Below are positions 14,010 to 61,831 of a stretch of 64,000 bases of DNA, one piece after another. Under the pieces are notes generated by a model. That model made no database searches and was not told the DNA's origin. It saw only the letters and a program-made list of their open reading frames with translations. The position numbers were made by a program, and so were the translations under genes. The stretch covers positions 302,617 to 366,616 of the forward strand of contig CAMKPZ010000002.1 in assembly GCA_946414805.1 (NCBI GenBank), read 5' to 3'. This stretch comes from an uncultured Bacteroidales bacterium. Its GTDB lineage: Bacteria; Bacteroidota; Bacteroidia; Bacteroidales; Paludibacteraceae. Numbering within the stretch: position 1 is the stretch's first letter; every line of letters starts with the position of its first letter.

Positions 14010-15294
14010 TGCCTACTAAATAATTACTGCCTCCTATAAAGATGGCATCTTCTTCTCCTGCTTGTTCCTTTGCGTGTCGGATGGCTTCCTCCGGATCGTT
14101 AATCGCTGTGCGGTCACTTCCTGCGTGGGGTTGCGGATGGGCGTTCTCCCATATCCGAAGCATCTCTTCTGCGCTCCGTGCCCGCAGGGTACGCGGCGTG
14201 GTGAAGATATAATGGTATCGTTCGCCTTCGGGCATCATGCGTGCTACAACCTCGGAGTCTTTGTCATTCACCATCCCGAAGACAATCCATATATGCGGGT
14301 TGCTCAGTTCTTTCAGCTGGCGGGCTACGTACTGCAGGCCATGGCTGTTATGGCCGGTGTCGCAGATCGTGAGCGGTTTCTCGCTCAGTATCTCCCATCT
14401 GCCTCGCAGCCCCGTCATCGAACACACATGTGCAAATCCCTCTCTGATGGCTGATGGCTGAATGCGGAGGGCGCTGTAATTTCTCAATACCTGCAGCGCT
14501 ACATATGCCGTCTGCAGGTTGTGTTCCTGATAGAGACCCTTCAACTCGCTCTCCGGTGCTTCTCGCATCCGGCGGCTGCGCATGTATCCGCACTGGTCGG
14601 CAAACCATATACGGCATTCGGTTGTCTCTAATCCTTCGCCTAAGATGCCGCATTCTGCCGCGCGGTCGAGAAACACGTTCATCGTTTGCGGATGACTTTC
14701 TCCGATGACACACGGCACGCCGGGTTTGATAATACCTGCTTTCTCACGGGCGATCTTCGTTAAGGTGTTGCCTAAAAACTCGGTATGGTCCATCCCTATA
14801 TTCGTGATCACTGATAGGATAGGGGAGAGCACGTTGGTGCTGTCCAGCCTTCCGCCAAGACCTACTTCCACCACCGCTATATCTACTTCCTGCTCTACGA
14901 AATAAGCGAAAGCCATTGCGGTCATGGTCTCGAAGAACGACGGCTGTAGCTCATCGAGGAAAGCCCTGTTGGTCTCGATAAATGCGGCCACTCGCTCCTC
15001 TGCAATCGGTTGGCCGTTGATCCGGATCCGCTCGGTCATACTCACCAGATGCGGACTCGTGAAGAGCCCTACCTTGAGTCCGGAGGCTTGCAGCGCAGCG
15101 GCAATCAGATGACTGGTAGAGCCTTTACCGTTGGTGCCGGCTACGTGTACCGCGCGAAGCCGTTCATGCGGATTGCCTACATGCGCCATCAACCGGTAGG
15201 TGTTCTCCAACCCCGGTTTATACGCCGCCGCACCCACCATATGGAAGGGTGGGCGGGAACTGTATAGATATGTCACTGCTTCCTCGTAACTCAT
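13984..15294 (-). CDS. folC: bifunctional folylpolyglutamate synthase / dihydrofolate synthase
   Basis: Mur-ligase P-loop VAGTNGKGST. Typical FolC N-terminus (YEEAVTYLY…). ATG at 15294; the ORF-track start at 15297 is a TTG one codon upstream, inside a heptamer repeat. Confidence 0.9.
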   Translation of the reverse strand: MSYEEAVTYLYSSRPPFHMVGAAAYKPGLENTYRLMAHVGNPHERLRAVHVAGTNGKGSTSHLIAAALQASGLKVGLFTSPHLVSMTERIRINGQPIAEERVAAFIETNRAFLDELQPSFFETMTAMAFAYFVEQEVDIAVVEVGLGGRLDSTNVLSPILSVITNIGMDHTEFLGNTLTKIAREKAGIIKPGVPCVIGESHPQTMNVFLDRAAECGILGEGLETTECRIWFADQCGYMRSRRMREAPESELKGLYQEHNLQTAYVALQVLRNYSALRIQPSAIREGFAHVCSMTGLRGRWEILSEKPLTICDTGHNSHGLQYVARQLKELSNPHIWIVFGMVNDKDSEVVARMMPEGERYHYIFTTPRTLRARSAEEMLRIWENAHPQPHAGSDRTAINDPEEAIRHAKEQAGEEDAIFIGGSNYLVGNALSCSTY

Positions 15295-15364
15295 CAATCA
15301 CCAATTACTAATCACCAGTTACCAATCACCAATTACTAATCACCAATTACCAGTTACCAATCAA
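15295..15364. repeat. heptamer tandem array x10 (CAATCAC/CAATTAC/TAATCAC/CAGTTAC)
   Basis: Read directly. Fills the whole dnaE-folC spacer and overlaps the dnaE stop (15361-15363); folC ATG (15292-15294) directly abuts the array (TTG at 15295-15297 is inside). Confidence 0.95.
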
Positions 15365-18300: not shown

Positions 18301-19278
18301 TATCGCCTCGGGAATATCGCTGAAGATAGCCTCCATTTCCTGCGGCGTCTTGAGCCATTCCTGCTTGGTGTAATGCATGCGGTTGATGTCATTCACATAA
18401 TGGTTGGTGCTCAGGCAGATCAGCCGGTCGTGCGCCTCCGCGTCTTCTTCGTTCACGAAATGGCTGTCGTTGGTTGCAATCAGTTTTACGCCGTATTTAT
18501 GCGCCAGCTCGATCAGCACGGGGTTCACTTGTTTCTGCCGCTCATATACCTCCACATCGCCGCCGGGCTTCTGGGTCTCATGGCGTTGCAGCTCGATGTA
18601 ATAATCATCCCCGAAGAGGTTCTTGAACCATTTGACGGTCTCCTCCGCCTCTTTAAACACCCCTTGCTCAATGAGTTGGAGGACTTGGTCTTTGAGCGGC
18701 TCTGCCGCATCCTTTCGATTTTCGACTTTGAGCGAAGCGCTCTGTAATCCATCCAATATCTTTTGGGGCAACTCGCCGCCGAGGCATGCCGACGAACAGA
18801 TGATACCTTCGTGGTATTTCTCTAACAGCTCTTTGTCGATTCGCGGTGTGTGGTAAAACGCATCCGTCATGTATCCTGCCGACACGATCCGGCACAGGTT
18901 GTGGTAGCCCGCCATGTTCTTTGCCAGAAGGATCAAGTGCCAGCCCGAGCGGTCGATGACATAGGTGCGTCCTTCGCCGTTCACGGCTTTGTCCTCCCGT
19001 TTGGAGAGGCGGCCGCGCCGTGCGCAGTACGACTCGGTGCCTACGATCGGCTTGAAGGGAACGAACGCTGTTCCGTTCGCTTCGGCTTCTGCCTTGCGTG
19101 CTTTGTTGATCTTCTTGCAATAGTCTAACAGATCCTTGATACCGTACATGTTTCCGTGGTCGGTCAGCGCCACGGAAGTCATGCCGGTAGCAATACATTT
19201 ATCTACTATCTCCTCTACCTTCGACAAGCCGTCGAGTAGCGAATAGTGGGAGTGTACATGTAGATGCGTGAAACTCAT
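15361..19278 (-). CDS. dnaE: DNA polymerase III subunit alpha
   Basis: PHP motif FTHLHVHSHYSLLDG. 1305 aa with DnaE-like sequence throughout. Confidence 0.97.
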   Translation of the reverse strand: MSFTHLHVHSHYSLLDGLSKVEEIVDKCIATGMTSVALTDHGNMYGIKDLLDYCKKINKARKAEAEANGTAFVPFKPIVGTESYCARRGRLSKREDKAVNGEGRTYVIDRSGWHLILLAKNMAGYHNLCRIVSAGYMTDAFYHTPRIDKELLEKYHEGIICSSACLGGELPQKILDGLQSASLKVENRKDAAEPLKDQVLQLIEQGVFKEAEETVKWFKNLFGDDYYIELQRHETQKPGGDVEVYERQKQVNPVLIELAHKYGVKLIATNDSHFVNEEDAEAHDRLICLSTNHYVNDINRMHYTKQEWLKTPQEMEAIFSDIPEAIANTQEIVDKIELYDIDHGPIMPKFDIPASFGKEEDYPDRLAFESAYLRHLTMEGALERYGQERLENDEVLKERIEFELNTIITMGFPGYFLIVMDFIRAAREELDVSVGPGRGSAAGSVVAYCLKITDLDPLKYDLLFERFLNPDRISLPDIDTDFEDCGRGKVLDYVSRKYGETHVAHIVTYGKMATKSALADVGRVQQVPLPRVNELKALIPDREFPDSVGKDAKGKKPKVNLKNCYKYIDELKREYETGDPNTRSMLQYAARLEGTIRQVGVHACGVIIGADDLTNFAPLSSVEDKNSKKRVLVTEYDGHVVESVGLIKMDFLGLITLTIIKECLRNIKKAQGIDVDIDHIPIDDEQTYKLFQEGRTVAVFQFESAGMQKYLRELQPTVIGDLIAMNALYRPGPMDYIPQFIKRKQGVEPVTYDIPVMEKYLKDTYGVTVYQEQVMLLSRLLANFTRGESDKLRKAMGKKQMDVLQALKGKFMDGGRANGHDEKILDKIWKDWEKFASYAFNKSHAACYSWVAYQTGYLKAHYPAEFMAANLTVHKDDIKEVTKLMDECKALGLSVLEPDVNESELSFTVNSKGAIRFGLGGIKGVGEGAAEAIISEREKNGKYNGIFDFLERVNLQSCNRKTIENLAQAGAFECFEDIYREQFFGEDESGTTGLDLLMNYGNKWQADKVQNSNSLFGDLSDAIEIKHPELPQVARWDTIERLNKEKDLIGIYLSAHPLDEYEYEIRELCNVTAGELAQFDKWRRPEERQEAEKRIRVEMAENSGDSEEQPVIPSEFITAHKNQACLLGGLITSAEQRISQKGNPYGRYTIEDYTGSYEFALFGNAYNQYGHLLLKDLYILISGVVQQKNAGMKWFKEAKDEEAEFEFVVQHVEMLNETQDKRTEGLNVRLALNAVTPELIDELSDRIKANPGQGRLHVTLVNPMTRHQVALTSRSLPIHVTPAFYKWLTMKRSEGVLDFNNVERS
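18690..18745. repeat. in-frame copy of the CTTTCGA/GCGAAGC repeat element inside dnaE
   Basis: 18690-18709 matches 24005-24024 at 19 of 20 positions. 18712-18739 matches 22149-22176 at 27 of 28 positions. Encodes QSASLKVENRKDAAEPLKD. Confidence 0.85.
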
Positions 19279-22192: not shown

Positions 22193-23919
22193 AATGTATA
22201 TGTATAATTGACCGCTACGCCTTCCTGCCGCGGAACGTACCGGCACACGCCGCCTACGCAGTTATGCCCTTCGCGCGTCTTGGTGTAACCTAAACTCACA
22301 TGGTGACCGCCGTAGGTGTAGGTGCCGTTCACCGTGTAGAAATGTTCGTTCGTCGCTTCGGCTGTGCCGCCTATGTTGTACATCCATTGTCCGCTGATCA
22401 TCCAGTGGCGGTAGAGGCTCAACTCGCATAAGGCGAAGATCCACTGCCCCTGATAGTCCCGCGACCAGGCGTATTGGAGCTCTCCGCGTACCGATACATC
22501 CTTATGCGCCTGCACCCGTGTGTCGATGACAGCGATGCCTGATCGGATGAATCCGCCCGAGCCTTCTATCACCAGCCGGTTGTAGTTCTGGTACATCACC
22601 ATGGCGTTGAGCCACCACCGTTTGGTGATCCGTTTGTTCAGTTCGATATTCACATCCGTGTAGTATTCGCCGTCCGCTCCTTTGGCGATCGCCCAACTGC
22701 CCGGTTGCTCCAGTCCCCGTATATGTGCGGCGCTCAGCTTGAGGGTGGTGCCGTACCGTCCGCCCATCTTCGTCTTCCGCGCCCAACTGTAACGCACCTC
22801 CGCCTGGAATGCCCATTCGCCGTCCGCGTAACGCGTAGCGTAGGGATATAAGGCGGCTAAAGCGTACGTATGCTGGGGCGCAAAGGCAGGCATGTTGTTC
22901 AGCCGTCCGGCGATGCCTGTCCGGAGACGCTCCGAGCGGAAAGCCATGTTGTCCGACCGCTTCACCTGAGCCAGCACCGAGAAGCCTTTCTGCGAGTACG
23001 ATCCGCTGATGAATAACGCTTCTCCGGCGCGGTAACTGAACCCGTTGTCCAGACAAGGGTCATTCGCCTTGCGTGCGTATTCCGCCAGGAGGTTCCATCC
23101 GCCCATCTGCCATTCCGCACGCACTTCGCCTGCTCCTACCCATCGCGGCAGGTTGTATAGATAGAGCGCCCCGTCTATAGGTTTGATGATCGTGTCGAAC
23201 GCCTCGTATTTGGATACATAACTGCCGCCGATAGTCATACGCATGTCGCGTGTCTGCATCGCCGGCACCCATTGTTCGATATGCAGTTCCAGGTCGCCGC
23301 CGATCGTGGCGTCACGCCCGTAGTTCCATCCGAAGGCATGGTCGTCGTAGCAACTCCAGTACCGCCGCTGCTTGCCGCCTATCGCGGTCAGCCGGATACC
23401 CTTGTACGGCTGCACTTCTATCTTCGCGCCGCGAAGCGATCCGTCAATGCCTAACGACCGCTCCTCATAGAGATTCAGGATCAGACCCGATCCGAACTGA
23501 CCGTACACATCGCCTATTGTGATCTCGCCCCAACTGAATGCGGCGGCAACGCTCAACCGGCTCATGCCGTATCCTCCGAAATCCAGCTCGTAACCCTTCA
23601 TCGGCCATTTCGTCAACTCCAAACGCGTTGAGACCCGCATCTCACGGAAAGTACTCTTTCGACTTTCTGCTTTCGGCTCTTGACTTTCTACTTTCGGCTC
23701 TTGACTTTCGACTCGCTGCCAATGTAGTGTCAGATCGACATATGAGTTGCTGTGATACATCACGGGGCTCCAGTCCAGCAGTCCTTCATGCTGAACCCCT
23801 CCGCTCACATACACGGTGTCTTTTGCTTCCGCCTTTGCCTCCGCCTTTGCTTCCGCCCTTGCCTCCGCTCTTGCCTCCGCCTTTGCCTCCGCGATCACCG
23901 CCAGTGCGATGAAGACCAA
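22189..23919 (-). CDS. predicted outer-membrane beta-barrel protein with in-frame repeat insertions
   Basis: Alternating beta-strand pattern and C-terminal …GVAVNYTYTF, typical of OMPs. N-terminal (AEAK/AEAR) repeats and a VESQEPK repeat. The track start is a TTG inside the signal-peptide h-region, so the true start is uncertain. Confidence 0.6.
   Translation of the reverse strand: MVFIALAVIAEAKAEARAEARAEAKAEAKAEAKDTVYVSGGVQHEGLLDWSPVMYHSNSYVDLTLHWQRVESQEPKVESQEPKAESRKSTFREMRVSTRLELTKWPMKGYELDFGGYGMSRLSVAAAFSWGEITIGDVYGQFGSGLILNLYEERSLGIDGSLRGAKIEVQPYKGIRLTAIGGKQRRYWSCYDDHAFGWNYGRDATIGGDLELHIEQWVPAMQTRDMRMTIGGSYVSKYEAFDTIIKPIDGALYLYNLPRWVGAGEVRAEWQMGGWNLLAEYARKANDPCLDNGFSYRAGEALFISGSYSQKGFSVLAQVKRSDNMAFRSERLRTGIAGRLNNMPAFAPQHTYALAALYPYATRYADGEWAFQAEVRYSWARKTKMGGRYGTTLKLSAAHIRGLEQPGSWAIAKGADGEYYTDVNIELNKRITKRWWLNAMVMYQNYNRLVIEGSGGFIRSGIAVIDTRVQAHKDVSVRGELQYAWSRDYQGQWIFALCELSLYRHWMISGQWMYNIGGTAEATNEHFYTVNGTYTYGGHHVSLGYTKTREGHNCVGGVCRYVPRQEGVAVNYTYTF
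23654..23716. repeat. 21-bp tandem repeat (3 heptamers) x2.7 inside the OMP gene
   Basis: GACTTTCTGCTTTCGGCTCTT / GACTTTCTACTTTCGGCTCTT / GACTTTCGACTCG… encoding VESQEPK-VESQEPK-AESRKS. Confidence 0.9.
23822..23893. repeat. 12-bp tandem repeat x6 inside the OMP gene (encodes AEAK/AEAR repeats)
   Basis: TTTGCYTCCGCC-type units read directly. Confidence 0.9.
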
Positions 23920-24036: not shown

Positions 24037-24127
24037 TCAATCCCGTGCCAATCCCGTGTCAATCCCGCATCCTACCTATACATATAATATATATAATTAT
24101 ATATATTATTCTGTGATTTTTATAAAT
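24037..24127 (+). repeat. about 90-bp dispersed element, copy 1 (AATCCCGTG repeats, CGCATCCTACC, pure A/T tract, GTGATTTT-ATAAA)
   Basis: Aligns by eye with 54201-54299 in the same orientation. Confidence 0.8.
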
Positions 24128-24778: not shown

Positions 24779-25618
24779 ATGGAGGAAAACGGGCTCATAT
24801 TCCGGTGTTTTGCCAGCGGTAGTAGCGGTAACTGCTACTATCTCGGTACGCGTCAGCGGGGAATACTCATTGACGCCGGTATCTCTGCGCGCCAGATCCA
24901 GAAGTGCCTGCGGGATATGGGCTTGGATTTCAAGAATATCATGGGCGTTCTCATCACGCACGATCATGCGGATCACATACGCGCGGTAGGTACATTAGGA
25001 GAACGCGTGAAGCTGCCGATCTACGCGACTCCGTTGATCCATGAGGGCATCGATCATAACTACGGCGTACGCGAGAAACTGCGCACGAGCCGCCGCTATT
25101 TCGAGAAAGGGGTGGAGTGGCACCTCTCCGGCATGACGATCAACACCTTCGGCGTGGAGCATGACTCCACAGACTGCCTCGGCTATTGCATTGATTATCT
25201 GGGGCAACGGTTCGTACTGATCACCGATTGCGGTTCCGCCAACGAGGAGATAGAGGCCTATATCCGTACGGCGAACCATCTGGTGATAGAGGCGAACCAC
25301 GACGAGCACATGCTTCTGAACGGTCCGTACCCGACTTATCTCAAGGAGCGTATTCTCTCTCCGCGAGGCCATCAGAGCAACGACACCTGCGGTGCTCTGC
25401 TCGAACGCAACTGGCACCCCGAGCTGCGTAATGTGTGGTTATGCCATCTGTCGTTGGAGAACAACGATCCGCAACTCGCCTACGACACCGTGAAATCCTA
25501 CCTCGAGGAGATAGAAATCATCCCCGGACAGGATATTTTCCTCAAACCACTCGACCGGCTCACACCCAGTCCCGTCTATGAACTCAATGATAAGGTGATT
25601 GGTACTTGTGAATTGTAA
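24779..25618 (+). CDS. MBL-fold metallo-hydrolase
   Basis: HxHxDH motif (ITHDHADH). N-terminus FASGSSGNCYYLG is typical of YycJ-like MBL proteins. ATG at 24779 is 18 nt after the promoter -7 box. Confidence 0.85.
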   Translation: MEENGLIFRCFASGSSGNCYYLGTRQRGILIDAGISARQIQKCLRDMGLDFKNIMGVLITHDHADHIRAVGTLGERVKLPIYATPLIHEGIDHNYGVREKLRTSRRYFEKGVEWHLSGMTINTFGVEHDSTDCLGYCIDYLGQRFVLITDCGSANEEIEAYIRTANHLVIEANHDEHMLLNGPYPTYLKERILSPRGHQSNDTCGALLERNWHPELRNVWLCHLSLENNDPQLAYDTVKSYLEEIEIIPGQDIFLKPLDRLTPSPVYELNDKVIGTCEL

Positions 25619-25642
25619 ATTGTAAATTGTGAATTGATAACA
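25594..25642. repeat. heptamer tandem array x7 (GGTGATT GGTACTT GTGAATT GTAAATT GTAAATT GTGAATT GATAACA)
   Basis: Read directly. Contains the MBL-hydrolase stop (25616-25618) and abuts the GT2 ATG (25642). Reverse complement of the AATTNAC units at 15295. Confidence 0.9.
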
Positions 25643-26439: not shown

Positions 26440-28317
26440 ATGACTTTAGAACAACAGATAACCGCCCTTGTTAAAAACGCCGTCAAGGCGCTCTATGACC
26501 TTGATGCTACCGATGCGCAGATCCAGTTGCAGAAGACCCGTCCCGAGTTCGAAGGCAACATCACGCTTGTGGTCTTTCCTTTTGTCAAACTCGCCCGTAA
26601 GGCTCCGCAAGCCGTGGCGCAGGAGATCGGCGAAAAACTGAAGGCTGACGGCTCAGGGCTGATCGCCGAATTCAATGCCGTGCAGGGCTTCCTCAACCTC
26701 ACTGTCTCCGATGCGTTCTGGGTGGAGCAACTGAAAGCCATTGATGCCGACGGGCACTACGGCCGCTTCAAACACCCGAATGGTAAATGCCCGAATGGTA
26801 AATGTGAAAATGACCAAACGGTACATCCCTTGATGATGGTCGAGTACTCTTCGCCGAACACCAACAAACCGCTGCACCTCGGACACGTGCGTAATAATCT
26901 GCTCGGTTATTCGATCGCGAAGATCCAGGAGGCGAACGGATGGAACGTGGTCAAGACCAATATCGTCAACGACCGCGGCATCCATATCTGCAAATCCATG
27001 CTTGCGTGGCTCAAATACGGCAACGGCGAGACTCCGGAGACCTCCGGCAAGAAAGGCGATCACCTTATCGGCGATTACTACGTGCGTTTCGACAAGGAAT
27101 ACAAGGCGCAGATAGCCGAACTCATGGCTGCCGGAAAGGACGAAGAGACCGCTAAACGCGAGGCACCGCTGATGATCGAGGCACAGGAGATGCTCCGTAA
27201 ATGGGAAGCGAACGATCCCGAGGTACGCGCCCTCTGGGCGAAGATGAACGAGTGGGTCTATGCCGGTTTCGACGAGACTTACAAGCGCATGGGTGTCTCT
27301 TTCGATAAGATCTATTATGAGTCCAACACCTATCTGGAGGGCAAATCCGAAGTGGAGAAAGGTCTCGCTTCCGGTGCTTTCTACCGCCGCGAGGACGGAT
27401 CCGTCTGGGCGGATCTGACCAAGGACGGACTGGACGAGAAACTGCTCCTCCGCTCCGACGGCACCTCTGTCTATATGACCCAGGATATAGGTACCGCCAA
27501 ACTGCGGTTCCAGGATTACCCCATCGACAAGATGGTCTATGTGGTCGGCAACGAGCAGGAGTACCATTTCAAGGTGCTCTCTATTCTCCTTGACCGCCTC
27601 GGTTTCCCCTTCGGAAAAGAACTCGTGCATTTCTCCTATGGTATGGTCGAACTGCCGAACGGCAAGATGAAATCCCGCGAGGGTACGGTGGTGGACGCAG
27701 ACGATCTGATGGACAAGATGGTAGCCGACGCCAAGGAAATCTTCCTCCAGAAGTCTAACAGCGATAGCGGTCTAACAGCAAAGCGGTCTGTCAGCGACAG
27801 CGGTCTGTCAGGCGAAGCCGGTCTGACGAGCGATGACATCGCTCGTATGGTGGGTCTCGGCGCACTCAAGTACTTCATTCTCAAGGTTGATCCGCGTAAG
27901 AACATGCTCTTCAACCCCGCGGAGTCGATCGACTTCAACGGCAACACCGGACCGTTCATCCAATACACCTACGCCCGCATCCGTTCCGTCCTCCGCAAAG
28001 CGGAGGAAACCCTGGGAAATCTAGGAACCCTAGAAACCATAGAAACCCTGGATCCCAAAGAGCTCACCCTCATCCAGCGTTTGACGGAGTATCCGGCGGC
28101 GGTGCGTACTGCAGGCGATGAGTTCTCGCCGGCGGTCATCTGCAACTATGCCTATGCGCTGGCATGCGAGTTCAACTCTTTCTATCACGATCTGTCGATC
28201 CTGAACGAGCCCGATGAGCGAAAGAAATCGCTACGCTTGCTTTTGTCTGCAAACGTAGCGAAAGTGCTCCGCTCCGCTATGGCGCTGCTGGGCATTGAGA
28301 TGCCCGAGCGGATGTAA
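26440..28317 (+). CDS. argS: arginine--tRNA ligase
   Basis: HIGH-type motif PLHLGHVRN. KMKSREG (KMSKS equivalent). C-terminal anticodon-binding (DALR-like) region. Contains in-frame tandem-repeat insertions. Confidence 0.95.
   Translation: MTLEQQITALVKNAVKALYDLDATDAQIQLQKTRPEFEGNITLVVFPFVKLARKAPQAVAQEIGEKLKADGSGLIAEFNAVQGFLNLTVSDAFWVEQLKAIDADGHYGRFKHPNGKCPNGKCENDQTVHPLMMVEYSSPNTNKPLHLGHVRNNLLGYSIAKIQEANGWNVVKTNIVNDRGIHICKSMLAWLKYGNGETPETSGKKGDHLIGDYYVRFDKEYKAQIAELMAAGKDEETAKREAPLMIEAQEMLRKWEANDPEVRALWAKMNEWVYAGFDETYKRMGVSFDKIYYESNTYLEGKSEVEKGLASGAFYRREDGSVWADLTKDGLDEKLLLRSDGTSVYMTQDIGTAKLRFQDYPIDKMVYVVGNEQEYHFKVLSILLDRLGFPFGKELVHFSYGMVELPNGKMKSREGTVVDADDLMDKMVADAKEIFLQKSNSDSGLTAKRSVSDSGLSGEAGLTSDDIARMVGLGALKYFILKVDPRKNMLFNPAESIDFNGNTGPFIQYTYARIRSVLRKAEETLGNLGTLETIETLDPKELTLIQRLTEYPAAVRTAGDEFSPAVICNYAYALACEFNSFYHDLSILNEPDERKKSLRLLLSANVAKVLRSAMALLGIEMPERM
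26775..26804 (+). repeat. perfect 15-bp tandem duplication inside argS (CCCGAATGGTAAATG x2, encodes PNGKC-PNGKC)
   Basis: Read directly. Confidence 0.95.
27757..27830 (+). repeat. imperfect AGCGGTCTG-containing repeats inside argS (encodes SDSGL-type repeats; includes GCGAAGCCGGTCTG)
   Basis: AGCGGTCT at 27766, 27782 and 27799, and AGCCGGTCT at 27815. Confidence 0.75.
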
Positions 28318-30440: not shown

Positions 30441-30495
30441 AAGCAGACCGCTTCGCTGTGTTCTGTGCGCTGTGTTCTGTGTTCTGTGCACTGTT
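30441..30495. repeat. GCGAAGCGGTCTGCT core (minus strand) plus heptamer array x6 (GCTGTGT/TCTGTGC/TCTGTGT) in the spacer upstream of clpB
   Basis: Read directly. Confidence 0.85.
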
Positions 30496-37927: not shown

Positions 37928-38002
37928 TGGGCGTTTACGGATTCGAACCGCAGACCCTCTGCTTGTAAGGCAGATGCTCTAAACCAGCTGAGCTAAACGC
38001 CC
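37928..38002 (-). tRNA. tRNA-Val (anticodon UAC)
   Basis: Cloverleaf read by hand: GGGCGTT-TA-GCTC-AGCTGGTTTA-GAGC-A-TCTGC-CTTACAA-GCAGA-GGGTC-TGCGG-TTCGAAT-CCGTA-AACGCCC-A. 75 nt, no encoded CCA. Confidence 0.93.
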
Positions 38003-54200: not shown

Positions 54201-54299
54201 GTCCCGTGGTAATCCCGTGGTAATCCCGAGTCAATCTCGCATCCTACCCGCACCTATATATATTATAAATATAATATATATCCCGTGATTTTGATAAAC
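54201..54299 (+). repeat. about 100-bp dispersed element, copy 2, between infC and rpmI
   Basis: GTCCCGTGGTAATCCCGTGGTAATCCCGAGTCAATCTCGCATCCTACCC…A/T-only tract…CCCGTGATTTTGATAAAC. Aligns with 24037-24127. Confidence 0.8.
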
Positions 54300-55121: not shown

Positions 55122-55475
55122 ATGGAAAACGAATCGATTGAACTCTCCTTGCTGGATCCGGAGGAGCGCGAATTGGTGGAGTTTGTGCTCAATGCCATTC
55201 CGGCGGAGGACCGCAAAGGCCTCTCGCCGGACGATGTCTTATACGTGCTTGACGCAATGGATGATTTCCTTGAGGAGCAGGGATTGCTTCAGGAGAACAC
55301 CCGGACAGGAGAAATGGAGTATCTTGACGGAGATGTCGATGAAACCGAACAGTTGAATTATGTCCTCAACGCCATCCGTGAGGACGGGCGTTCCATTTCG
55401 GCGGTGCAGGTACAGCTGATCCAGGATGCCGAACTCCAATACGGCATTGAGAAAGGTTATTACGAAGAGGACTAA
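55122..55475 (+). CDS. hypothetical small acidic protein
   Basis: 117-aa ORF with a strongly acidic, helical-looking sequence. No family recognised. Confidence 0.5.
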   Translation: MENESIELSLLDPEERELVEFVLNAIPAEDRKGLSPDDVLYVLDAMDDFLEEQGLLQENTRTGEMEYLDGDVDETEQLNYVLNAIREDGRSISAVQVQLIQDAELQYGIEKGYYEED

Positions 55476-55479
55476 ACCC

Positions 55480-55527
55480 CAATCACCAATTACCAATCAC
55501 CAATCCCCAATCCCACTTTGCAATCCC
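55480..55527. repeat. heptamer array (CAATCAC CAATTAC CAATCAC CAATCCC CAATCCC … CAATCCC) upstream of and overlapping the ribF start
   Basis: Read directly. Same unit family and same plus-strand orientation as 15295-15364. Confidence 0.9.
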
Positions 55528-57795: not shown

Positions 57796-58559
57796 TATTC
57801 AAAATTGAAGGTCAGACATACGCAATGTGTGGTCAGGCGCGAGATAGCATCGGAGTAGAAAGCCTCATGCGGCGCCAACTCCATGCGTCCGTCGGATGGC
57901 GATAACTGGTTGGCGAAACCGATGCGGTACGTGATCTCCGGACAGAACTTGAACCATCGGAAATAGAGATCCACGCCGAATCCCACTTCGCAGAAATAGT
58001 CTGTCAAGTTCAGCAATACCGGTTTCTCTCTGTCGCGGCTGACATTAAAACTTGCGCCGCCTCCCGCAATCACATACGGACGGTAATTGCCTTCGCGCGC
58101 AGCAGACCATTTCAGATACAGCGGCAGGTAAACCGGCATAGCCAGAATATCAATATTGGCGCCTGTCTTACCCGGAGTTCCGACTACAGGGCGTCCGCTC
58201 TCTGTCTTGTAACTCAGCGTGCGGCTTGCAAACTGAATACCCGGACAGAAACGCAGATTCAGGTATTTGCAGAGCCTCAGATCGCTTACAAAACCTACAT
58301 GGAAACCCGGTAGAAGACTGCTCACGCGTGCATGGTAGATCTCCGTCTCTCCGGTAAGCGGATTGGTGATAGGCTGCTCACTGTCGGTTACACCGAAACT
58401 CGCGAAATCAAGTCCTAACTGAAAACCGAAGTGGAAGAGTTTGTCATCCGCATACGGCCGGTTCATCCCCTGTTGCGCAAAGGATGGAGTACTGAGTACC
58501 GAGTATAACGTACAGAGTACCAAGGCTGCTATGATCCGTAATCTATTCGTAATTCTCAA
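57795..58559 (-). CDS. PorT-like / small outer-membrane beta-barrel protein
   Basis: Signal peptide, then DDKLFHFGFQLGLDF and an alternating strand pattern ending …CVCLTFNFE. Size and N-terminal motif resemble the PorT/SprT family as I recall it. TTG start. Confidence 0.5.
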   Translation of the reverse strand: MRITNRLRIIAALVLCTLYSVLSTPSFAQQGMNRPYADDKLFHFGFQLGLDFASFGVTDSEQPITNPLTGETEIYHARVSSLLPGFHVGFVSDLRLCKYLNLRFCPGIQFASRTLSYKTESGRPVVGTPGKTGANIDILAMPVYLPLYLKWSAAREGNYRPYVIAGGGASFNVSRDREKPVLLNLTDYFCEVGFGVDLYFRWFKFCPEITYRIGFANQLSPSDGRMELAPHEAFYSDAISRLTTHCVCLTFNFE

Positions 58560-58580
58560 TTTAAAAAATTAACAATTCGT

Positions 58581-58629
58581 AATTCTCAATTCTCAATTCT
58601 CAATTCTCAATTCTCAATTCTCAATTAAT
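58581..58629. repeat. heptamer tandem array x7 (AATTCTC)
   Basis: Read directly. Contains the stop of the TonB-receptor-like gene (58625-58627). A separate copy, TTCGTAATTCTCAAT, carries the PorT-like TTG start (58557-58559). Confidence 0.95.
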
Positions 58630-61707: not shown

Positions 61708-61831
61708 TACGATTATTAAGATTTTTCTGCTCCCGACTTAACCACGACTTAACCACGACTTGCCCTCGACTTGCCCCCGACTCAAAGGTGGTCGTGAAAA
61801 AGCCCCGAAAAGTTTACGATTATTAAGATTT
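61708..61831. repeat. 17-bp direct repeats (TACGATTATTAAGATTT at 61708-61724 and 61815-61831) flanking 90 bp that contain an 11-bp tandem array x5 (61734-61788)
   Basis: Read directly. The second direct repeat overlaps the rho stop codon. Confidence 0.85.

Follow-up and report, generated by a model that had tools for sequence, protein, structure and literature searches.

Heptanucleotide tandem arrays at gene junctions of a rumen Paludibacteraceae genome

Four gene junctions with heptamer arrays

The 64,000-nt stretch of DNA analyzed here (the window) belongs to a rumen Paludibacteraceae MAG (G000; 2.23 Mb in 24 contigs, 50% GC), whose DnaE relatives at 80–87% identity are likewise rumen Paludibacteraceae or Bacteroidales MAGs. 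At four gene junctions the window carries tandem arrays of related 7-nt units, all of the CAATnnn/nnnATTG group. Their coordinates and units, given in an earlier note that was made from the letters alone, were confirmed by the sequence and by Tandem Repeats Finder (TRF), and Pfam agrees with the names used there for the neighboring genes, i.e., DnaE, a FolC-type Mur ligase, an MBL-fold hydrolase, GT2, RibF, an outer-membrane beta-barrel protein (OMP), and a TonB-like receptor. The four arrays are real and non-random, and each carries or abuts a stop or start codon, as the same note had observed.

The first array fills the whole dnaE–folC spacer (15295–15364, minus strand; seen in the sequence and by TRF at periods 7, 14, and 28). 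Its ten units read CAATCAC, CAATTAC, TAATCAC, CAGTTAC, CAATCAC, CAATTAC, TAATCAC, CAATTAC, CAGTTAC, and CAATCAA on the forward strand. The two genes are encoded on the minus strand; read along it, the junction is GAG-TTGATTG-GTAACTG-GTAATTG-GTGATTA-...-GTGATTG-ATG. The dnaE stop TGA (15361–15363; DnaE by Pfam) falls within the first unit, and the folC start ATG (15292–15294; Mur_ligase domains of FolC type by Pfam) follows directly after the last, of which an in-frame TTG (15297–15295) just before that ATG forms part. The second array (25594–25642, plus strand) separates the MBL-fold hydrolase gene from the GT2 gene, neighbors again identified by Pfam, and comprises the seven units GGTGATT, GGTACTT, GTGAATT, GTAAATT, GTAAATT, GTGAATT, and GATAACA. 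Here the in-frame MBL stop TAA (25616–25618) is inside the array and the GT2 ATG is at 25642, the repeat units being taken to end 5 nt before it.

The third array (55480–55527, plus strand) precedes ribF, assigned by Pfam, and is stop-free on its sense strand. Five CAATCAC/CAATTAC/CAATCCC units are followed by ACTTTG and then by one more CAATCCC; the upstream TAA ends at 55475 and the array begins 4 nt later. The ribF start TTG (55518–55520) lies in the ACTTTG interruption, and the next unit provides ribF codons 2–4. This TTG is the only possible start; the conserved IATIGFFDGVHAGH motif begins four codons on, and there is no other in-frame start back to the TAA. In strain L085 a gene caller chose a GTG within the conserved GFFDGVHAGH motif, which is too far downstream for the start of ribF.

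The fourth array (58573–58629, minus strand; 58573–58626 by TRF) lies between the TonB-like gene and a PorT-like OMP gene and has seven to eight sense-strand TTGAGAA (GAGAATT) units, with six AATTCTC units and a degenerate AATTAAT read on the forward strand from 58581 to 58629. It starts at the TonB-like stop TAA (58627–58625), which is in that degenerate unit, the last in forward order. In the sequence beyond the array, a solitary GAGAATT unit with ACGAAT (58545–58562, minus strand) duplicates the array end and supplies the PorT-like start TTG (58559–58557). The product translated from this codon, LRITNRLRIIAALVLC..., begins with a signal peptide, alignable to the G005 sequence MRVRKF.... A second heptamer array, of sense GGTACTC/TGTACGT type with 4.9 copies (58487–58520, minus strand; TRF), runs in frame through the part of the PorT-like gene that codes for the signal peptide (…LVLCTLYSVLST…).

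Array length was compared with strain contigs that are 98–99% identical, stem from other metagenome assemblies, and were fetched by exact-protein look-up. The length changes in 7-nt steps that the earlier note had anticipated occur at all four loci, as whole-unit copy-number differences between close strains that range from −42 to +21 nt in contigs all drawn from short-read assemblies, which can collapse repeats. Specifically, the first array has four units instead of ten in L086 (−42 nt, a single contig), the second differs by +21, +21, +21, and +14 nt in four strain contigs, and L085 differs by +14 nt at the third and by −21 nt at the fourth. The proposal that slippage alters C- or N-termini found no echo in these variants, as flanking proteins are essentially unchanged with the sole exception of the MBL stop, which is shifted by at most one codon. 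With a stop in an early unit and a start after the last, only the length of the spacer changes. Across about 20 kb of strain comparison, the longer indels almost all coincide with short tandem repeats (period 7, 11, 12, or 15), and the indels inside genes are all multiples of 3. Two pattern scans of JGI metagenomes across the first two loci yielded no more alleles, and further exact-protein look-ups gave no new strain contig in six of ten cases. The ends of the strain contigs (L086, L087, and others) tend to fall at heptamer arrays or close to them, L086 starting 45 nt before the first array, and the arrays probably fragment short-read assemblies of the genus.

In five species of the same genus (L004, L006, L010, L016, and L021) dnaE and folC meet in a TGATG or ATGA overlap. 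Unrelated arrays of other units occupy this junction in L020, L015, L013, and L001, and a unit of the L020 array provides the GTG with which folC starts there. The junction of the MBL and GT2 genes is 'TAAT ATG' without an array in the closest species, G004. Array-free ribF junctions read ATGA (G004), TGAATG (G003), and GTGA (G005), and the PorT-like junction is a TAATG overlap in G005 and G010, with the gene starting ATGAGAGTT; in G004 it has its own GGTGAAT array. Orthologs of ribF and the PorT-like gene in the genus start at ATG, or at GTG in one species, and the G000 unit TTGAGAA resembles the ancestral PorT-like start ATGAGAG. When array-bearing junctions of G000 were mapped in G004 by tblastn, all four were short and without an array; of seven mapped in G003, three to four had arrays with different units or an 8-nt period. 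A tendency for two species to share an array-bearing junction (odds ratio 3.8, p = 0.06) is only suggestive. Overall, arrays have replaced overlapping junctions over evolution, and the starts of ribF and the PorT-like gene appear now to be TTG codons within or next to a unit. The compact junctions of array-free relatives and the independent arrays elsewhere indicate that arrays are young, arise repeatedly, and pry apart coupled junctions.

Genome-wide distribution and sequence bias

The impression that such arrays are pervasive was borne out by whole-genome TRF, which found 407 period-7 arrays of at least 3.5 copies in G000 and 0, 0, and 3 in Markov-simulated genomes of order 1, 3, and 5; the arrays are thus not absent elsewhere in the genome. 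Period 8 accounted for 101 arrays, period 11 for 74, period 9 for 59, and period 6 for 21. After merging, 400 heptamer arrays in 85 unit classes remained (~180–183 arrays per Mb), and ten of the 1172 possible heptamer classes made up 65% of them, at 15–80 times their frequency as singletons. The top units are GAGAATT, GTGAATT, CAGCCGT, and GTACTTT. Units are mixed within arrays and group into the superfamilies CAATnnn, GTACnnn, and CAGCnnT; they are found in both orientations and in coding sequence, and the dominant ones are common to genes and spacers alike, with arrays about 4 times as dense between genes as within them. One further intergenic array in the window, CTGTGCT with 5.6 copies, lies at 30456–30494 (no strand assigned; TRF).

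The position of arrays relative to genes was counted with a crude ORF caller. Co-directional spacers hold 163 arrays, of which 76 overlap the upstream stop or abut it, 105 have that stop within 10 nt, 96 end within 10 nt of a called start, and 69 do both. Arrays occur in 89 of 395 spacers of 20–150 nt. An association with co-directional junctions, for which the earlier note had suggested a test, did not hold per junction, as arrays are present at 13.5% of these (163/1203), 15.6% of convergent (20/128), and 12% of divergent junctions (15/125). The description of the arrays as fillers of operon spacers applies at junctions. At least 96 further arrays are located in frame in the interior of ORFs, in the stop-free orientation and flanked on either side by sequence with good coding scores, and encode 7-residue repeats such as NSQFTIH, SAVSRQP, and KVESQKS. 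The window has such an in-frame array in an outer-membrane protein gene (23656–23713, minus strand; sense GTCGAAA-type, 8.3 copies by TRF), which encodes RVESQEPKVESQEPKAESRK.

Several other repeats were noted in passing. The array at 23656–23713 (RVESQEPK...) shows no length change in the two strains that cover it, and the same gene contains an in-frame 12-nt repeat (23822–23892, AEAK-type) with strain differences of 36 and 12 nt. The PHP-domain loop of dnaE (18690–18745, around residue 177) holds the insert QSASLKVENRKDAAEPLKDQ...; this loop is minimal in L009, L004, and L010 and carries other heptamer-encoded repeats in L021 (TCAGCCG, 14.6 copies), L001, and L015. Strains L081 and L082 have one unit (15 nt) more in an in-frame 15-nt repeat of argS (26775–26812). 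Tandem repeats with an 11-nt unit (e.g., CAATCCCGTGC) are located at 24038–24067, 54202–54236, and 61734–61782, the first of them 33 nt longer in strain L083, and with its 74 arrays period 11 is the third commonest period in G000. Outside the window lies a tandem repeat of ~65 nt (G000 C1:206700–206990), in whose unit the 40-nt core TTAGCCCCAAAGGGGCACGATTATTTGGCAGAGCCAAATT precedes two to three heptamers; a related copy is present at C7:54107.

The arrays are biased in base composition. The sense strand has more A than T in 123 of 159 co-directional-spacer arrays (p = 2.5e-12), on both DNA strands. This bias is pronounced in arrays adjacent only to a stop (19:4) and at convergent junctions (14:5), which fits units that include the stop codon; selection at translation starts is not supported as its source, given the ratio of 13:11 in arrays adjacent only to a start. 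About half of the co-directional-spacer arrays (83/163) have stops in all three sense frames. Folding energy of the sense-strand arrays has a median of −0.014 kcal/mol per nt compared with −0.062 for other spacers and is zero in 40% of arrays. In composition, the arrays approximate ordinary G000 upstream regions, which are A-rich and C-poor.

Before at least nine genes, including glmS-like and recA-like genes, the repeats form a phase-locked leader, CTAAATTG-TAAAT-N3-TTT-ATG (G000, outside the window: C1:273140, C2:151381, C3:96918, C3:257250, C6:50215, C11:3593, C12:27570, C15:32551, and C16:31693). In the form ...TAAATGAC-TAAATTG-TAAAT-N3-TTT-ATG, the repeat ends exactly 6 nt before the ATG. 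Two of the leader genes have a promoter-like TAnnTTTG box immediately before the leader; their entire 5' UTR would then consist of the array. The phase-locked leader hints at a function or at dispersal.

A second association concerns genes of the PF05635 family (Avd-like, 23S rRNA IVS protein), which resembles the nucleic-acid-binding DGR protein Avd (PMC10053308). All four such genes in G000 (C2:32460–32774, C11:1585–1899, C3:280314–280625, and C2:36116–36403) are flanked by arrays of the major unit families, two by strict TRF and two by eye; under strict TRF, this compares with 1.6% of all genes (p = 0.0014). The PF05635 genes of L157 (G013), L158 (G015), L159 (G011), and L149 (G008) are also bracketed by heptamer arrays, mostly inverted. 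In G013, G011, and G015 inverted arrays bracket the gene even though 100 kb sampled from these genomes is otherwise array-free. The inner arrays in G013 consist of ATAACTG, i.e., the TAACTGA unit. As a determinant of the genome-wide arrays, PF05635 was rejected, for its presence does not track array density: the array-rich G004 (genome 75% complete) has none and the array-free G011 and G013 have three to four.

Three genomes of the same genus have 86–192 period-7 arrays per Mb, with repertoires that differ between species, and no period-7 arrays were found in 100 kb from each of four other families of the order. High heptamer density is a lineage trait of this rumen Paludibacteraceae genus.

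Proposed slippage and selection, and alternative explanations

Several candidate mechanisms were set aside. Loss of mismatch repair was rejected as the cause, since MutS_I and MutL_C are present in all members of the genus, and so was a reverse-transcriptase or DGR origin, since RVT_1 is lacking in G000, G004, and G007 and in most of the genus. No Rfam 15 family matches the arrays; a single tRNA (37928–38002) is the only hit at or above gathering score in the window. Inspection did not support a Bacteroides TAnnTTTG promoter inside the arrays.

The arrays are most likely (a probability of about 70%) hypermutable, slippage-prone heptanucleotide simple sequence repeats (SSRs) of the LSSR/STRR class that are filtered by selection and mainly alter intercistronic distance and start context, without acting as an on/off switch. 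They presumably originate by tandem duplication and replication slippage at very compact stop/start junctions such as TGATG, ATGA, and TAATG. As the differences between strains show, they then grow and shrink by whole 7-nt units. Both genes survive such changes: the upstream stop is placed within the first units or immediately ahead of them, and the start either follows the final unit or is recruited from it. Neither gene is damaged, and what varies is the intercistronic distance and the context of the start codon. The patterns described above suggest selection as a filter: near stops, an A-rich mRNA strand that carries stops would be favored, arrays with nearly no RNA structure would be retained, and inside genes only stop-free, frame-preserving copies would persist. 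Termination-reinitiation coupling would give way to an A/U-rich linker that lacks structure and varies in length, and expression of the downstream gene may at most be modestly retuned. This slippage-and-selection account has its weak points. Local slippage alone fails to explain the unit repertoire with its ten strongly enriched classes, and the divergence of repertoires among species of one genus, the phase-locked leader at at least nine genes, and the array-bracketed PF05635 genes in otherwise array-free genomes likewise speak against it.

That the arrays are regulatory contingency loci, in which gain or loss of units alters termini or coupling and thereby creates tunable or phase-variable operon switches, is unlikely. 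It would account for the copy-number differences between strains at all four loci, for arrays that abut starts and even supply the TTG start of ribF and of the PorT-like gene, and for the leader with its upstream TAnnTTTG box at two genes. However, the strain variants leave both neighboring proteins essentially as they were, the genes concerned include housekeeping genes (dnaE, folC, and ribF) rather than typical phase-variable surface genes, convergent and divergent junctions are hit equally often, and arrays occur in frame in essential genes, in which gaining or losing 7 nt would kill the cell.

Distinctly unlikely is a binding-site network, in which a lineage-specific protein recognizes the heptamers on RNA or single-stranded DNA and maintains or spreads preferred units. 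Candidates would be cold-shock or S1-type proteins, as proposed for the TAACTGA repeats, or the Avd-like four-helix-bundle proteins of PF05635. The few dominant unit classes, the species-specific repertoires, the resemblance of PF05635 to a nucleic-acid-binding protein (PMC10053308), and the arrays at all four PF05635 genes of G000 and, inverted, in G013, G011, and G015 are consistent with such a network. Against it stand the 85 unit classes, their occurrence in both orientations and in coding sequence, and the mismatch between array density and PF05635 gene content in G004, G011, and G013. A related conjecture, which we likewise hold to be improbable, is that a lineage-specific process, maybe linked to PF05635, spreads preferred heptamers, the arrays serving as tunable, structure-free intercistronic leaders in place of termination-reinitiation coupling in Bacteroidota, a phylum that seldom relies on Shine-Dalgarno sequences. 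Finally, remnants or ends of small mobile elements (MITE/REP-like) or an assembly artifact, which the many dispersed copies and the ends of contigs from other assemblies near arrays might suggest, are very improbable and already largely refuted by the lack of common flanks, terminal inverted repeats, or target duplications around 99 aligned arrays of three families, by the recurrence of these arrays, with SNPs inside them, in assemblies that several studies produced independently, and by array lengths below typical read lengths.

The arrays have practical consequences for annotation and assembly, as starts lie inside units, spacer and protein lengths vary between strains, and contigs tend to break at arrays. 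At overlapping junctions and in genes such as dnaE, the genus carries and tolerates a great many 7-nt repeats, which makes it a natural setting for the long-standing question of why bacteria favor heptamers among their long microsatellites. If array length affects re-initiation, it would offer a simple means of retuning operon stoichiometry where initiation is not led by Shine-Dalgarno sequences.

Relation to known heptamer repeats

The repeat class itself is already known from the LSSR, TAACTGA, and GGGNATC repeats (PMC4679880, PMC4692102). The view that the arrays match no described family of Bacteroidales repeats therefore stands in part: our literature search found no paper on such arrays in Bacteroidales or Paludibacteraceae, but the class has long been described and Paludibacter is listed among its hosts (PMC4679880). 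LSSRs, as the survey by Mrazek, Guo and Shah (2007) is recounted in PMC4679880, have units of 5–11 nt with heptamers as the main class, are phylogenetically patchy, and were attributed to polymerase slippage. Our arrays share the head-to-tail short units beyond chance, with heptamers at 4.4–9.6 copies at the four loci (TRF). As far as that account goes, they differ from LSSRs in their lineage, which is outside the survey, in their density of 183 per Mb, and in the many in-frame genic arrays even though 7 is no multiple of 3.

The STRR sequences of heterocystous cyanobacteria, which Mazel and colleagues reportedly described in 1990, are said to comprise several 7-nt families at hundreds of mostly intergenic loci and to be of unknown function. 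Heptanucleotide arrays of several families (85 classes here) at many, mostly intergenic loci are also what we find. However, the host is a rumen Paludibacteraceae bacterium of another phylum rather than a heterocystous cyanobacterium, the units differ from those of STRR1–3, and strain-level length changes and compact ancestral junctions are documented here.

The GGGNATC/GGGGAYT repeats of Xanthomonas and Nostoc form quadruplexes, lie preferentially between aligned ORFs at ≤50 bp from stops or starts, and vary in unit number (Rehm et al. 2015, PMC4692102). Heptamer arrays that are spread over the genome, lie close to stops or starts between aligned ORFs, and vary in unit number are common to both systems. 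In contrast, the units described here are AT-rich and without G-tracts, the four arrays contain no GGG run and cannot form G4 structures, and arrays are not under-represented per junction at divergent junctions. TAACTGA direct repeats occur in marine Beggiatoaceae, cyanobacteria, and five Bacteroidetes including Paludibacter propionicigenes, where they are situated just upstream of starts and a post-transcriptional role has been proposed (MacGregor 2015, PMC4679880). They resemble our arrays as heptamer repeats near starts and are present in a type species of Paludibacteraceae, and ATAACTG units flank the PF05635 gene of the outgroup G013. However, many unit families rather than one are present here, and the class AACTGAT is absent among the 60 commonest classes of G000.

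With the phase-variable contingency SSRs of Haemophilus and Neisseria (e.g., PMC2651432), our arrays share slippage-prone repeats whose unit is no multiple of 3. In contrast to these, the arrays at the four loci sit between a stop and a start, and the observed variants switch neither ORF. The new detail in G000 is that the arrays split overlapping gene junctions.
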